Origin: an uncultured Methanosarcinaceae archaeon
GTDB lineage: Archaea; Halobacteriota; Methanosarcinia; Methanosarcinales; Methanosarcinaceae
Direction of reading: 5' to 3'
Assembly (NCBI GenBank): GCA_963727895.1
Contig: CAVSHT010000009.1
Coordinates: 96,001 to 160,000 of the forward strand
Length of the DNA stretch: 64,000 nt
Part shown: positions 8,149-14,832 of the stretch, one piece after another
How positions within the stretch are numbered: the first letter of the stretch is position 1
Layout of the letters: every line of letters starts with the position of its first letter
Program-made: the position numbers and the translations under genes
Notes under the pieces: generated by a model
What the model was told of the DNA's origin: nothing
Database searches by the model: none
Seen by the model: only the letters and a program-made list of their open reading frames with translations

Positions 8149-8634
8149 ATGACAAGTATTGTTGAAGCACTTGTCCCAGGAGGAAAAGCAAATCCTGGAC
8201 CACCTTTAGGTCCAGCGCTTGGTCCACTTGGGGTCAACATAAAAGAAGTAGTAGAAAAGATCAATGAGAAGACTAGGGACTACAACGGAATGCAGGTTCC
8301 TGTTAAAGTAATCGTTGATGATAAGAAGAACGTCGAGATCGAAGTGGGTACCCCACCAACTGCATCTCTTATTATGAAAGAGTTAGGGATTCAGAAAGGA
8401 TCAGGAAATGCAGGTAGCGAAGTTGTTGGAAACATCACTATTCAGCAAGTCGCAAAAATTGCTCGCATGAAAAAGGAAGATGTACTGTCCTACGATCTTA
8501 AGGCAACTATGAAAGAGGTTATGGGCACCTGCGTCCCTATGGGCGTGACTGTAGAGGGAGCTAAGGCACAAAAAAGCCAGACGGCACTTGATCAAGGCAA
8601 ATTCGACGATCAACTTGCCGGTGAGGCTTGGTAA
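8149..8634 (+). CDS. rpl11: 50S ribosomal protein L11
   Basis: GGKANPGPPLGPALGPLGVN. Confidence 0.97.
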   Translation: MTSIVEALVPGGKANPGPPLGPALGPLGVNIKEVVEKINEKTRDYNGMQVPVKVIVDDKKNVEIEVGTPPTASLIMKELGIQKGSGNAGSEVVGNITIQQVAKIARMKKEDVLSYDLKATMKEVMGTCVPMGVTVEGAKAQKSQTALDQGKFDDQLAGEAW

Positions 8635-8814
8635 GCCTTCAAACTCCTTAATTTAAATCCGGGATATAATTACCACCAATAGTTTTAAATTGAATAGCAC
8701 TAATAGCTCAAAAGCCTTGCACATAGTTGCAATAAATTAAAAAAGATAGTTATTAGTAGCGGTTTATCGTTAAGAATAATATAACTCGGATTTATGGGGA
8801 AGCCCTAATACCAA

Positions 8815-8864
8815 CCGTAGTAAGCCTAAAAGGCTGCTTGAACAATTAAGTTCAAACACTACGG
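8815..8864 (+). promoter_or_regulatory. Candidate structured mRNA leader of rpl1-rpl10-rpl12
   Basis: Stem CCGTAGT/ACTACGG enclosing two hairpins, ending directly at the GGAGGA SD. Confidence 0.5.
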
Positions 8865-8875
8865 GGAGGAACTAT

Positions 8876-9517
8876 ATGGCAGAAAAAACTATATTGGAAG
8901 CTGTCAAGAAAGTACTTGAGGAATCACCAAAGCGCAATTTCTCTGAAAGCGTGGATATGGCGATTAACTTAAAGAATCTTGACATGAACCAACCGAAAAA
9001 CAGAGTCGATGAAGAAGTGATTCTTCCTCACGGGCTCGGAAAAGAACTAAAGATCGGTGTTTTTGCAAAAGGCGATGTAGGCTTGAAAGCAAAGGCTGCC
9101 GGTGCTGCATATGTTATTTCTGATGTTGAGCTCGATGAACTGGCCGCTGACAAAAATAAAGCCAGGATTCTTGCAAATGAATGTGACCTTTTTATCGCAG
9201 AAACCCAGTTCATGCCAATAATTGGTAAGAACCTTGGAATTGTTCTTGGACCTAGAGGGAAAATGCCTATTCCACTCTTACCTAACAAGGACATAGGCGA
9301 ACTCATTCAGAGCAAGCAAAATGCGATAAGGTTGAGGTCAAAAGACAAGCTTACTTTCCATGTGCCTGTCGGCCGAAGGAACATGAGCCCAGAAGACCTC
9401 GCCGAAAATGTCGAGACTATAGTTGCCAGACTAGAGCGTGTCTTAGATAAGGGTAAACACAACGTGAGAACAGTCTATGTAACGACAACTATGGGAAAAT
9501 CCGAAAGGGTGGTGTAA
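8876..9517 (+). CDS. rpl1: 50S ribosomal protein L1
   Basis: RNFSESVDMAINL, LGPRGKMP, TTMGK. Confidence 0.97.
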   Translation: MAEKTILEAVKKVLEESPKRNFSESVDMAINLKNLDMNQPKNRVDEEVILPHGLGKELKIGVFAKGDVGLKAKAAGAAYVISDVELDELAADKNKARILANECDLFIAETQFMPIIGKNLGIVLGPRGKMPIPLLPNKDIGELIQSKQNAIRLRSKDKLTFHVPVGRRNMSPEDLAENVETIVARLERVLDKGKHNVRTVYVTTTMGKSERVV

Positions 9518-10558
9518 ATGGCAGAGGAAAGACATCACACTGAGCATGTCCCGCAATGGAAAAAGGATGAGATCGAAAATATAAAAGAACTCATTCAGTC
9601 CCATAAGGTCTTTGGAATGGTTGGAATCGAGGGCATTCTTGCAGCCAAGATCCAAACAATTCGTCGCGACCTTAAAGACGTTGCAGTGCTCAAAGTCTCC
9701 AGGAACACCCTTACAGAGCGGGCTTTTAACCAGCTCGGAGAAAAAATTCCCGAGATGGGTAAATACCTTGATAAGCAGACTGCTCTGGTATTTACTAATG
9801 AAAGTCCTTTCAAGCTTTACAAAATACTTGAACAGACAAAAACTCCATCTCCAATTAAAGGAGGTGCAATAGCTCCTGTGGATATTATTGTCCAGAAGGG
9901 GCCTACCAGTTTCCCACCTGGACCGATTCTCGGAGAATTCCAGAGTGCAGGAATTCCCGCTGCAATAGACGCAGGGAAAGTTGCAGTAAAGGAAACTAAG
10001 ATTGTCTGTAAAGCAGGTGATGTGGTTCCACAGAAGCTCGCAACTATGCTCACAAAGCTTGAGATATACCCTCTCATTGTAGGACTGGACTTAAGAGCCG
10101 CCTATGACGATGGGATGATTTACGAGCCGGAACTCCTTGCAATTGACGAAGACCAATACTTCTCTGACATTATCAGAGCAGCTCAGAACGCTTTCAATCT
10201 CTCTGTCAACACTGCGTATCCGACAAGCGCAACAATTGACACTCTGCTGGCAAAAGCCTTTGCAGAATCAAAGAACCTTGGTGTCAATGCTGTCGTGTTT
10301 GATTCTGGAGTCATGGACACTCTGCTGGCAAAAGCTCATGTCCAGATGACATCCGTTGCATCCAAAGCCGCAGACAAAGATGCAGATGCTGTGGATGATG
10401 ACCTGAGAGATGTTCTCGGAGCAGCTGCAAATGCAGCCGCCGCAGTAGCTAAGGAACCTGAGAAGAAAGAAGAAGTAAAGGAAGAAGAGGAAGAAGAGAA
10501 AGAAGATGACCACACCGAAGAAGACGGAATGGCCGGTCTTGGAGCTCTTTTCGGATAA
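9518..10558 (+). CDS. rpl10: 50S ribosomal protein L10 (P0)
   Basis: VPQWKKDE, GPTSFPPGP, acidic tail ending GLGALFG. Confidence 0.97.
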   Translation: MAEERHHTEHVPQWKKDEIENIKELIQSHKVFGMVGIEGILAAKIQTIRRDLKDVAVLKVSRNTLTERAFNQLGEKIPEMGKYLDKQTALVFTNESPFKLYKILEQTKTPSPIKGGAIAPVDIIVQKGPTSFPPGPILGEFQSAGIPAAIDAGKVAVKETKIVCKAGDVVPQKLATMLTKLEIYPLIVGLDLRAAYDDGMIYEPELLAIDEDQYFSDIIRAAQNAFNLSVNTAYPTSATIDTLLAKAFAESKNLGVNAVVFDSGVMDTLLAKAHVQMTSVASKAADKDADAVDDDLRDVLGAAANAAAAVAKEPEKKEEVKEEEEEEKEDDHTEEDGMAGLGALFG

Positions 10559-10594
10559 AAAATATACTTACGATAATTTAAATTTAGGTGATCA

Positions 10595-10915
10595 ATGATG
10601 GAATACATATATGCAGCTCTTTTATTGCACAACGCTGGTAAAGCAATTAACGAAGAAGCAGTCACTGCCGTTCTCAAGGCAGCAGGTGTAGAAGTTAACG
10701 AAGCTAGAGTAAAAGCCCTTGTCGCAGCCCTTGAAGGCGTAGACATTGAAGAAGCAATCTCAAAGGCAGCATTTGCAGCTCCTGCAGCCGCCGCAGCTCC
10801 TGCAGCCGCCGCAGCTACCCCTGCCGCAGAAGAAGCTCCTGCCGAAGAAGAAGAGAAAGAAGATGAACATGCCGAAGAAGACGGAATGGCCGGCCTCGGT
10901 GCCCTCTTCGGATAA
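10595..10915 (+). CDS. rpl12: 50S ribosomal protein L12 (P1)
   Basis: [11 protein letters not shown], Ala-rich hinge, GLGALFG. Confidence 0.97.
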
Positions 10916-11201: not shown

Positions 11202-12194
11202 ATGTCCCGATTTAATCCAATCCTGGCTTTAAGGGCTCTTTGGCAAATTCGAGTACAAAAACGTCCTTTTGTGATGTCACATGGCGTAAATGCTCGCTGC
11301 AATATGCGCTGTAAATTCTGTGAGTACTGGAAGGAAACTGGAGAAGAGCCGACTAAAGAAGAGATTTTTAAATTGTTAGACGACGCAAAAGAATTTGGAA
11401 TAGGAGTCTACAATGCCTGGACTGTAGAACCTCTTCTTAGAGAAGATCTACCCCAAATTATGGCACATGCCAAAGAACTTGGAATGATCACTTCCATGGT
11501 CACAAATGGAAAACTGCTCTATGAAAGAGCAGAAGAGTTGAAGGACGTGGACTTTCTTTCAGTGTCAGTAGATGGGATAGAAAGTTATAAAGAAATTCGT
11601 AAGATGGACTTTGAAACTCTGCTGAAAGGCTTAAAAAAAGCCATTGAAGTGAGAAAGATCCAAAAAAATAGGAATCCTATTTTGATGAACTGTGTACTCA
11701 CAGGAAAAAATCTGGACGATATCGAGACTCTGATATTACTTGCAAAAAAGCTGGGAGTAAAAGTTTCATTTGAACCTGTCCATGAGTTTCCAGGTATCAG
11801 TGAGGAGATCTGGAACGAAATTGGAATCCGTGATATGGAAAAATTCCGCAAAACAGTTGACCGCATAATAGAATTTAAGAAACAACATTACCCTATAATT
11901 AATTCCATAACATACCTCAAAATGGTTCGAGACGGAGAAATGGACTATAAATGCAGAGCCAGTGGAGTTATTATAAATGTGACACACGACGGCACTCTGG
12001 AAACCTGCCGTGTACATAATGAACCCCTTGGAAATGTGATATGGGACGGCTTCGAAAGTGTCTGGGAAAACTCGGAAGAACACAGAAAGGAAATTGTCAA
12101 AAATTGCAGTGGCTGCCTTTTTTTTGGATATACGGAAAACAGTTTGATGCAGAGCTTTAATCCTGAAGTTCTGATGCATTACGAGTGGATGTAA
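11202..12194 (+). CDS. Radical SAM protein with C-terminal SPASM/twitch-like domain
   Basis: CNMRCKFC motif; C-terminal Cys cluster (C..., LETC, CSGC). Confidence 0.9.
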   Translation: MSRFNPILALRALWQIRVQKRPFVMSHGVNARCNMRCKFCEYWKETGEEPTKEEIFKLLDDAKEFGIGVYNAWTVEPLLREDLPQIMAHAKELGMITSMVTNGKLLYERAEELKDVDFLSVSVDGIESYKEIRKMDFETLLKGLKKAIEVRKIQKNRNPILMNCVLTGKNLDDIETLILLAKKLGVKVSFEPVHEFPGISEEIWNEIGIRDMEKFRKTVDRIIEFKKQHYPIINSITYLKMVRDGEMDYKCRASGVIINVTHDGTLETCRVHNEPLGNVIWDGFESVWENSEEHRKEIVKNCSGCLFFGYTENSLMQSFNPEVLMHYEWM

Positions 12195-12195
12195 A

Positions 12196-12367
12196 TCCCG
12201 AGTCCCGTCTCGGGAGGACGGCGCCCTTTTCGCTCACTTCGTTCGCTCAAGAGGACTGAACCCGGGGGCAAGAAAAGATATTTTTTAAATTTAGAGCGCT
12301 CAGCACCTCAGTCCCCAGCACCTCAGTCCCGGCGGCTTCGCACGCTTCGTGCCTTCGGGCTTCGCCG
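12196..12367. repeat. GC-rich hairpin cluster with CTTCG/CGAAG mini-hairpins and a 15-bp tandem repeat
   Basis: TCCCGAG/CTCGGGA stem; CGCTCACTTCGTTCGCTC; CAGCACCTCAGTCCC x2 (12301-12330); four CTTCG between CGGCG and CGCCG (12330-12367). Confidence 0.75.
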
Positions 12368-12416
12368 AAAAATTACCTACTCCCAAAGCAGTGTAAAGTG
12401 GTAAAGTCGAAAGTGG

Positions 12417-13675
12417 TTACAATTTCCTCAGAAGACGCAAGCCAACGAAGGCGGAGCGGTCGTCGGTGCCGACCCAGCGGTAAGCTGACCGGCAGTACCC
12501 GGCAGAGATGATCCAGCCGCCACCACGTATCACACGGGCGGGGCTATCTCCATCTTCCCAAGCACTACCATCAGAAGGAGCTCCTTCATAATTATTATAC
12601 CATCTGTCCTGAACCCACTCCCAAACAGTTCCATGCATGTCATAAAGGCCCCATAGATTTGGCATCTTTTGTCCAACTGGATGAATTTCACTTCCAGAGT
12701 TATCACTATACCATGCATAATCCCCAAGCTTCGATTCATCATCCCAGAAGAAATACCTTGTTATTGTCCCGGCACGGCACGCGTATTCTCACTCAGCTTC
12801 GGAAGGTGAGCCCATTGAAAAATTTCCGGCTGGGATCAGTACGAAGTCCATTTCTGTAAAAGGACTGGTGAAGGTTTTTGGTATTTCTTGATCTTTGAAA
12901 ACTCTTGGAGTTTCTTGTTCCCTGAATTTCACTAAAACAGGTGAGTATTCGAGTTCTTCATTTTCCAGGTAACATTGGACTGTGTTAATATATGTTTTAA
13001 CACTTATTTTACCTTTTAGAAGATCTTCTAAAGAACTATTAATTTCTTTGTCAGTATCAGTTAATTCTCCTGGTTTCTCATAACCATCAACAAGAACAAT
13101 CATGGATATATTGTAGACATCAATTGGAAGCTCTTTTCTGATTATTCTAGCCAATTTGCGTTTCTTCCTCTTGAAATCCTGCTCTTTGACCTTTAAGGGA
13201 TTCTTTCCAATGAGAACCTTTCCTTCATTATCGACGAAAATAAAAGGAACTTGTGAATATCCAATAGTTTTTTCATAAACATAATTATAAAGATCATCAA
13301 GATTTATGTCGCCGTTATTATCACCAGCAACAGCTCCGCTTTTTAGTCCTTCGACAAAATAATATGTAAAAACACCATTCTCCAGTTTTTCATCTTCTTT
13401 TGCTACATCGAACTCACTAGATGCAGAGAGTATAACAGTACCTGATCCAGAAGACTTAGAAATAATTTCTTTTAAATTATTGCCTTTTATGCTTGCAGCT
13501 CCACTGTAACAGCAATCGAGAACTACAACAGTCTTGCAGCTTGAAGCATCTATACACTTCCTGACCAATGAATAATTCAGAGACGTGGGAATTAAACTAT
13601 CCATCTTCGTATTTTTAAATAATAGACACAGATCATGTTGAGAGTCAGGTTCGCCGTGGCCTGAAAAGTAAATCA
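12417..13675 (-). pseudogene. Caspase-like (peptidase C14) + FGE-sulfatase/CLec domain protein, disrupted; probable DGR target
   Basis: LIYFSGHG and LDCCYSG dyad motifs; PSEAE*EYACRAG with in-frame TGA at 12789-12791; WGLYDMHG.VWEW; RVIRGGGW...GLRL; 5' end cut by IS1. Confidence 0.85.
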
Positions 13676-14415
13676 GGTATTGTTAACTAAACATATTTAA
13701 CTCTTTATTTATGTATTTCATCAATAGAATAACCGAGTACTTTAGCATTTCAAGACTTTTTGTATAACACTTTGTCTTTCTTCTCAACCTTGCTAGAAAA
13801 TGCCTCAATATGCTGTTATATCCTTCAACTGTAAATGTTTCTGCTTTTGATTGAGTATGAATCGTTTCAGGAAGAAACTCTGCATATGCTCTCCAGTGAT
13901 CTGTCATCACTTCTCCAATCTCTTTTTTCTTCAATTTTTCCCAGAGTAGTTTTCCAGTTTCCGTTCCTCTGCTACCAAAAGAGCAGTTGATGAACTTTTT
14001 CCCAACTCTATCAACAGCAATCCAGATCCAGCAATATTTTTTTTGTTACCGATGTAAGTGTGCATTTCATCCATTTCAACAATAGATATCTCATTTTCAC
14101 TTTTTAGGTCCTCTAACTCCTGACCAAATTTCTTTATCCATCTTTAGACAGAAAACATGACTCACCCCTAAAAACCGTCCTATTGAGCGAAAGCCCAATC
14201 CTTCAAGGTAAAGTTGTAAAGCCTGTCTTTTAACAGAGGCGGAAAAATCAGTTGATTTTAGCTCGACTGTATAGTTATAGCCACAATCAGAGCATTTGTA
14301 CCGTTGACGCCCGCCAACTATACCGTTTTTTTGTGACTAGAACTATTACATTTTGGGCAATTCATGAAGAAATATATGTTATAAGCATATATATCTATTT
14401 TTTATTACCAATGCC
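13676..14415 (-). mobile_element. IS1-family insertion sequence, copy 1 (740 bp, defective)
   Basis: Ends GGTATTGTTAA / TTACCAATGCC; InsB-like TDHWRAY...VEGYNSILRHFLARLRRKTKC; frameshifted InsA part. Confidence 0.9.
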
Positions 14416-14832
14416 AAAAGTAAATTTATTTGGTAGATATATGATTTACTTTTTCATATTTACCGAGAAATAGCACTTTTAACAATACTATCTTCTTCAG
14501 ATTCAATTTCATAAAGACATGTAAATTTAGTGAAACGTTAATTTTGAAGTACCAGTTTGTGAATATGAATAGATTATTTAATAGTTTTCTATAAAATAAT
14601 ATATATATTTGTTGAAAGTTTCAAATTAAAAAGATAGGATAAGAATAGAATAGAGATTTAATACTTATTCACTTACAATTATTAATAAATAAGGAAACGT
14701 AGACTTATAGTTGGATAAAAAGATAATAGTTAAAACTTAAAATTGAAAATTAATAGTTAAAATCTGGAATTCCAGAAATTAACCGTGAATAGAGTACAGA
14801 TAGCTAAATACTCTTTTTAATTCCAAATGATT

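Follow-up and report, generated by a model that had tools for sequence, protein, structure and literature searches.

Positions 12427-12548 of the window, by which we mean the whole stretch of 64,000 nucleotides that was analysed, are a genuine DGR variable region (VR). The sequence is homologous to the template repeats (TRs) of DGRs in related archaea, and its differences from these templates cluster at the template adenines. It makes up the last ~40 codons of a gene remnant, at the C-terminal end of an FGE/C-type-lectin-fold domain. On the evidence set out below, this stretch is very probably a fossil, the frozen VR of what was once a DGR target gene. The assembly to which the window belongs, through contig C9, comprises 3.67 Mb in 19 contigs and is 84% complete; homologues and syntenic records assign it to Methanosarcina. 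A first-pass annotation of the same DNA had proposed that a caspase-CLec/FGE fusion ends in a DGR variable region; the identification is upheld by the adenine signature, and the extent it gave (12417-12545) differs slightly from the stretch that is homologous to a TR.

The gene remnant lies in a minus-strand open frame that runs from 13682 to the TAA and is interrupted by one TGA (Table 1). Read through, it yields a product of 421 residues (P0001) having three family matches. Pfam FGE-sulfatase is matched by residues 293-419 of the 421 (E 8e-29), but only in its C-terminal 143 positions; this falls short of a complete domain of the catalytic FGE/SUMF1 type, given that profile positions 113-255 only are covered and 79 codons are gone. 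The caspase part gives a weak match to Pfam Peptidase_C14 (E 1.3e-4) and a match to NCBIfam NF047832 ("caspase, EACC1-associated type") of 98.9 bits, below the cut-off of 140 and spanning profile positions 74-207 only. The sequences YFSGHG and LDCCYSG, read in the first pass as a caspase-like His/Cys dyad, are indeed located inside these two matches. At the nucleotide level, the caspase part is 94-95% identical to the related loci L135 (a metagenome contig, the closest relative) and L025 (Methanosarcina sp. UBA5), and the orthologue encoded on L135 (P0002) passes the NF047832 cut-off with 149 bits.

Table 1. Features of the window in and around the gene remnant, in order of position.
Feature	Position	Strand	Remark
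E2, conserved GC-rich element	12296-12367	-	core 12330-12367
E1, CCACTTT-type short repeats right after the stop codon	12393-12416	-	aligned in 18 related loci and the window
Stop codon TAA of the gene remnant	12417-12419	-	
FGE-sulfatase / C-type-lectin-fold domain, C-terminal part	12420-12806	-	Pfam positions 113-255 of 255
Variable region (VR)	12427-12548	-	122 nt homologous to relatives' DGR template repeats (TR)
In-frame TGA	12789-12791	-	Trp (TGG) in orthologues, EAEWEY
Junction of in-frame FGE-domain deletion	12801-12811	-	237 nt (79 codons) deleted
Caspase domain remnant (Peptidase_C14, EACC1-associated type)	13239-13676	-	without first 76 codons
Cys motif LDCCYSG	13500-13520	-	
His motif YFSGHG	13653-13670	-	
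IS element, ~743 bp	13676-14418	-	replaces upstream small gene and caspase 5' end
Remnant of the stretch preceding the small EACC1-like gene of L135	14416-14502	-	90% identity

The tail is set apart from the rest of the gene by its composition. The GC content is 0.68 at 12450-12549 and 0.58 at 12400-12499, compared with 0.27-0.45 in the gene body and 0.34-0.40 in all 19 contigs; for the VR as delimited here it is 66%, for the remaining gene 37%. Codons ending in C account for 19 of the 33 codons of VIRGGGW...VGLR versus 59 of 375 in the remaining remnant (Fisher p = 2.8e-7), and the adenine content of the same 33 codons is 10%, versus 33% elsewhere in the remnant. The earlier description of a GC-rich tail of ~40 codons in an AT-rich gene is borne out by the GC, NNC-codon and adenine counts alike, and the codon string quoted with it is correct.

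Evidence for adenine-directed diversification comes from the comparison with TRs. Aligned to the 125-nt TR of L135, the window VR has 21 of 34 adenines changed and 5 of 87 other bases, with one 3-nt gap; in a fixed register, 22 of 35 adenines are changed, their replacements being T (10), G (8) and C (4). Identity is thus 94% at non-adenine positions and 38% at adenines, and the change at non-adenines (5.7%) equals the divergence of the caspase part. The TRs of three further loci (L033, L125 and L120) return 21-22 of 31-33 adenines changed and 10-14 of 88-89 others (Fisher p 5e-9 to 2e-7). The signature is in each case read against the TR of another genome, the own genome being without a cognate TR. 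The refutation that had been laid down beforehand, namely differences not concentrated at positions 1-2 of NNC/NNT codons, fails, for this is where they are concentrated. Between the window VR and the orthologous VR of L135, 18 of 35 TR-adenine sites are different, as are 5 of 87 others; diversification therefore went on around or after the split of the two lineages. The window VR further shows a 3-nt deletion and a TTC to TTG change (F to L) that turns the conserved GFR motif into GLR.

An ordinary FGE C-terminus, GC-rich on account of its amino acids (Gly, Arg, Ala, Cys, Trp) or of a foreign origin and with no DGR involved, is extremely improbable as an explanation of the tail. The conserved RGGxW...CRSA...GFR scaffold does use GC-rich codons, and the control paralog C7:66814-67476 of the same genome also mismatches the TR more at adenines (12 of 20, versus 16 of 52 at other bases). 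That alignment is partial, however, covering just 72 nt, and another ordinary FGE paralog aligns to the TR over 12 nt only. The window VR is identical to a real TR at 94% of the non-adenine positions and at 38% of the adenines. In addition, the tails of the ordinary paralogs C7:66814-67476 and C9:77942-78610 have a GC content of 0.45 and 0.38 and an adenine content of 0.22 and 0.28, respectively, and lack the E1/E2 flank considered below, so that the composition of the window tail is not a general property of the FGE domain.

The same pattern of a fixed scaffold with free positions is found among proteins. Many Methanosarcina proteins of 567-590 residues with caspase and FGE domains were retrieved in a protein search, and the alignment of 22 of them has the tail scaffold RGGxWxxxAxxCRSAxRxxxxPxxRxxxxGFRLLRKL, in which the x positions vary freely. 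Three pairs among P0005, P0006 and P0007 are 95-96% identical outside the VR and 48-67% inside (P0005/P0007, 463/483 outside the tail and 13/27 inside; P0005/P0006, 512/535 and 18/27; P0006/P0007, 460/483 and 13/27). For the window remnant and its L135 orthologue (P0001/P0002), the identities are 347/390 outside and 15/26 inside. P0011/P0012 is the sole exception, with 524/535 identities outside and a nearly unchanged tail (26/27).

In the relatives L135 and L033, the DGR core is retained directly beside the target gene, not remotely. The L135 contig, 94.3% identical in nucleotides to window 13676-12801, carries in this order a small ORF and a caspase-FGE target; genes for HRDC (Pfam E 5.7e-20), Avd (NCBIfam NF033474, 104 bits, cut-off 80) and an intact reverse transcriptase (RT; RVT_1 with IGSLTSQ and YMDD motifs) together with the TR; a small EACC1-like ORF; and the orthologue of the window gene. 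Substitutions between TR and VR fall on TR adenines in 24 of 24 cases for the window-gene orthologue and in 18 of 19 for the second target. The small ORF directly upstream of the caspase gene in both L135 and L025 encodes 129 aa and matches Pfam EACC1 weakly (E 0.043; 14.2 bits, cut-off 23.6). L033, a contig of a Methanosarcina MAG, has its upstream genes in common with the window. There, the stop codon of a KAP-NTPase-like/FGE gene is followed by ~115 nt of conserved flank, HRDC (Pfam E 1.4e-20), bAvd (E 5.2e-18), an RVT_1 RT with IGSLTSQ and YMDD, and the TR, and 24 of 25 TR/VR substitutions are at TR adenines. A single in-frame TAG (L033:12129-12131) is present in the otherwise open 363-aa frame of this RT, at a position where the RT of L135 has Arg. 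Methanosarcina is able to read TAG as pyrrolysine, and the codon may represent read-through or else a first inactivating hit.

Further loci appear in various states of reduction. In L120 (3596-4074) and L125 (3590-4074), the TR follows the VR at a distance of ~200 nt, and the interval holds neither HRDC nor Avd nor RT; a search of the two genomes yielded no RT. The substitutions in L120 are at A in 17 of 17 cases, those in L125 in only 26 of 46; the adenine-only pair of L120 points to a very recent loss of the RT or to an RT acting in trans. L025, which has the upstream HEAT-repeat genes in common with the window, retains the relic of a decayed RT end and a TR immediately before its small ORF and caspase gene. 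As regards an RT in the genome of L025, none was found in any of four genomes (G059-G062). The relic, given its shared context, indicates that a DGR was once there and that the loss is not peculiar to the genome of the window. Following the TR, ~170-370 nt are 80-87% conserved between species (L033:12897-13265, L120:4075-4447, L125:4075-4316 and L135:4966-5134); this stretch may belong to the DGR RNA as a structured spacer, and isolated relics of it occur in genomes G027, G001 and G028. Of 45 archaeal loci scanned for further VR-like sequence, 14 contained a second copy, the one in L033 being the TR. The second copy in L046 was set aside, as it reflects two paralogous targets and not a TR; and an RT in G049 (33-39% identity) was judged unrelated to the window VR family, having an AT-rich context and a different type of TR.

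The gene of the window is dead from four inactivating lesions, judged against L135 and L025. That this copy is broken, as the first-pass annotation had stated, is evident from an IS element, a 237-nt deletion and the in-frame TGA; the fourth lesion is that of the VR, with its missing codon and GLR in place of GFR. The IS, which we take to be IS1-like from its frameshifted transposase ORFs, stands in for 654 nt comprising the small upstream ORF and the first 76 caspase codons; the position directly upstream, where an EACC1 gene would be placed, is thus occupied by the IS. The deletion junction exhibits microhomology of 11 nt when compared with L025, or 6 nt when compared with L135. The IS gives 301 BLAST segments genome-wide, with dozens of copies of 90-96% identity on C9 and C8 alone, and this abundance indicates an IS expansion in the genome. 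On its other side, the locus is flanked by a radical-SAM-like gene (11202-12194), and the genes at 8149-10915 presumably encode the ribosomal proteins L11, L1, L10 and L12. A radical-SAM gene and rpl12/rpl10 are likewise found downstream of the L125 locus, and L028 has the same radical-SAM gene. A GC-rich sequence of ~38 nt just past the radical-SAM stop (12197-12234) recurs on at least 8 contigs with 82-100% identity and probably represents a terminator-like element or a repeat scattered among intergenic regions. A deletion scar, suggested by the flanks of the L033 cassette that seemed to adjoin each other in the window, was dropped, the distal flank (12197-12260) holding this dispersed repeat.

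The genome itself, searched in its 84%-complete assembly, yielded no DGR-type RT, no Avd and no TR. DGR-type RTs bear the motif [I/L]GxxxSQ. Three RVT_1 loci are present, all with a QG-type motif 4. Two are group-II-intron-like and broken, the third is located next to Cas6 and a CRISPR array, and the best E value with which the DGR RT of L033 matches any of them is 2.4e-7. The last of the three (G000:C11:157690-160877), a 404-aa RT ORF adjoining a Cas6-like ORF and the array, looks like a CRISPR-associated reverse transcriptase locus. For Avd, the protein search and NF033474 each gave 0 matches in this genome. The TR of L135 together with its post-TR DNA matches the window VR only, and the assembly contains no second copy of the VR except the 3' end of a paralogous pseudogene (C7:116666-116871). 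This FGE-domain pseudogene (C7:116550-117450) contains TAG and TGA, a VR-like tail of 57% GC and a degenerate E1/E2 flank; relative to the L135 TR, its tail has 24 of 37 A and 18 of 87 non-A positions changed, and it is a second, older relic of the same kind as the window VR.

The first-pass annotation had regarded the window VR as the remote target of a DGR encoded at another place in the genome, which would mean that a trans-acting element still diversifies it. The missing part of the assembly could hold a DGR core, repeats being prone to fail in assembly; trans-acting DGRs and remote targets are known in bacteria, as described by Dore et al. 2024 (PMC10907252); and the L120 pair implies that loci without RT in the genome can look recently active. 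We nevertheless consider continued remote diversification very unlikely, and this part of the annotation is not sustained. No RT, Avd or TR turned up in 3.67 Mb, the site that holds the core in the relatives is assembled here and occupied by the IS, and with the gene dead, diversification would be without a product. The VR has moreover acquired non-adenine changes, including a lost codon and the lost conserved Phe.

Across the genus, DGR components are much rarer than their traces. An RT of the L033 type is present in 2 of 59 Methanosarcina species genomes (that of L033 itself and a different, AT-rich element) and Avd (NF033474) in 1 of 59, compared with TR/VR-like DNA (E <= 1e-6) in 16 of 59, the full TR with post-TR region being found in 2 (G012 and G030). 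In the family, the RT of L135 has matches at E <= 1e-25 in 4 of 177 genomes. On viral contigs, no close relative of the DGR RT was found, the best among the matches listed (80 loci) having 45% identity; with distant relatives only, there is no sign of a virus-borne DGR.

The rarity of the RTs just described could suggest that the module had been diversified in another lineage and arrived by recombination or horizontal transfer, with no DGR ever having acted here. The block of FGE domain, VR and 3' flank is common to genes whose N-terminal parts vary (caspase, KAP NTPase and others), and homology between L135 and the window begins only ~90 nt before the small gene and ceases ~100 nt after the stop codon; the wider flanks differ, so that L135 shares the module but is not strictly the same locus. 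Against such an arrival, L025, whose upstream genes are those of the window, retains its TR relic just ahead of the module, and L033, also with upstream genes in common, has the full cassette. Relic and cassette together locate a DGR of close relatives in the same chromosomal surroundings, and the transfer reading is held to be highly improbable. We infer that the DGR core was lost from the lineage of the window, rather than never present in it.

The window also retains a 3' flank of ~100 nt that is common to bona fide DGR targets; positions 12316-12416 are 72-85% conserved in 11 loci and aligned in 18 related loci. For the core of E2, RNAalifold predicts a hairpin of 17 pairs, 3 of them with compensatory changes and with a GCGAAGC mini-hairpin at the tip; in the window, a 15-nt tandem duplication at 12301-12330 is found in E2 and two outer pairs are broken. 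The sequence of E2 was looked for after the TRs of the relatives and is absent there, and the search of 11900-12700 against Rfam gave no match at E <= 1. Target recognition in BPP-1 requires a hairpin/cruciform, and such elements of DGR targets, as reported by Guo et al. 2011 (PMC3240598), have stems of 7-10 bp and GRNA loops and are located 4-34 bp from the VR. By analogy, E2 is a candidate DGR target-recognition hairpin; it resembles the BPP-1 element described there, but lies farther from the VR (~60-100 nt from the end of the TR homology) and has a different, GAA-type loop.

The kind of system to which the window relic belongs is already known, from DGR-diversified CLec sensors fused to protease effectors and from EACC1-caspase modules. 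As in the FGE-type CLec targets of the HRDC-containing "architecture C" DGRs (Wu et al. 2018, PMC5758913), the VR is the last ~40 codons, the scaffold is RGGxWxxxAxxCRSAxRxxxxPxxRxxxxGFR, the template has AAC/AAT at variable sites, and the relatives of the window combine HRDC, Avd, RT and TR; TvpA of Treponema denticola, also named in PMC7159879, is a comparator for the FGE-type VR. What differs is the archaeal host, Methanosarcina, and the state of the window copy as a pseudogene without RT, Avd and TR. The position of the small ORF directly upstream of the caspase gene in L135 and L025 is as in the two-gene EACC1-caspase modules of Kaur et al. 2020 (PMC7159879) and Evans et al. 2025 (PMC12642450), which are mainly those of actinobacteria, proteobacteria and other bacteria; unlike in such modules, the small gene of the window is deleted and the caspase truncated, with its NF047832 score below cut-off. 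Parallels also exist to the DGR "antigen sensors" that Dore et al. 2024 (PMC10907252) describe from multicellular bacteria, where a chromosomal DGR diversifies CLec tips on protease/NTPase effectors, several targets are served by one TR, loci are incomplete, rearrangement is driven by transposons and the host forms aggregates. Dore et al. deal with bacteria plus CPR/DPANN RTs (PMC10907252), and the Methanosarcina loci differ in being mostly RT-less relics. In the papers searched, no such system is described for Methanosarcina or any other methanogen, apart from a DGR of an ANME virus that PMC9723712 cites; the string "Methano" is absent from the main texts of PMC10907252, PMC8144416 and PMC5758913, and 11 of the 13 supplementary files of PMC8144416 contain no Methanosarcina, Methanosarcinales or Methanoperedens.

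How the intact system might work can be outlined from these precedents. In the relatives it comprises a small EACC1-like gene and, after it, a gene whose product begins with a caspase-type protease and ends with an FGE/C-type-lectin domain; the last ~40 codons are rewritten by a neighbouring HRDC-Avd-RT-TR cassette. Copying of the template RNA places random bases opposite its adenines, and the resulting cDNA takes the place of the VR, in line with the DGR chemistry of adenine-mutagenic reverse transcription of TR RNA and subsequent VR replacement as summarized in PMC7159879 and PMC10907252. The hypervariable lectin tip may serve as a cytoplasmic ligand sensor, ligand binding would switch on the protease, and cleavage of EACC1 would release a pore-forming toxin, with death of the infected cell as the outcome. 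In the preprint of Evans et al. 2025 (PMC12642450), caspase-like proteases are described to cleave EACC1, the C-terminal fragment of which forms membrane pores, and the EACC1-cleaving proteases are fused to varied sensors, DGR targets included. By analogy, the intact Methanosarcina proteins presumably couple sensor, protease and pore to trigger cell suicide. The possible role in sensing or defence raised in the first pass fits the published EACC1-caspase modules and is inapplicable to the dead copy of the window. In the genome studied here, the proposed course of events is that the DGR core disappeared, an IS-associated deletion took the EACC1-like gene and 76 caspase codons, 79 codons of the lectin domain were deleted and a Trp codon became TGA. 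Loss of the core combined with these lesions would have left the VR frozen in its last diversified state and drifting.

Lastly, the relic has importance beyond the individual gene. The local anomaly in composition is seen as a lasting footprint of adenine-directed hypermutation, one that outlives both the retroelement and the function of the gene, and the analysis provides a worked example of how an orphan VR can be recognised by comparison with the template repeat of a relative. Among the relatives, intact and apparently active DGRs accompany EACC1-like/caspase-lectin genes of Methanosarcina. A broader reading, to which we give slightly better than an even chance, is that a chromosomal DGR of the aggregate-forming Methanosarcina hypermutates the lectin sensor tips of suicide-defence proteins (the EACC1-like gene with the caspase, and the KAP NTPase) and is eroding across the genus, the basis for erosion being TR/VR-like DNA in 16 of 59 species genomes versus Avd in 1 and this type of RT in 1-2. 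If true, archaea would possess a counterpart to the "antigen sensors" that DGRs diversify in multicellular bacteria. Confirmation would carry over to the archaea the link that has been proposed between multicellular life and immune sensors of rapid diversification, and a genetically tractable archaeal host would become available for studying it.
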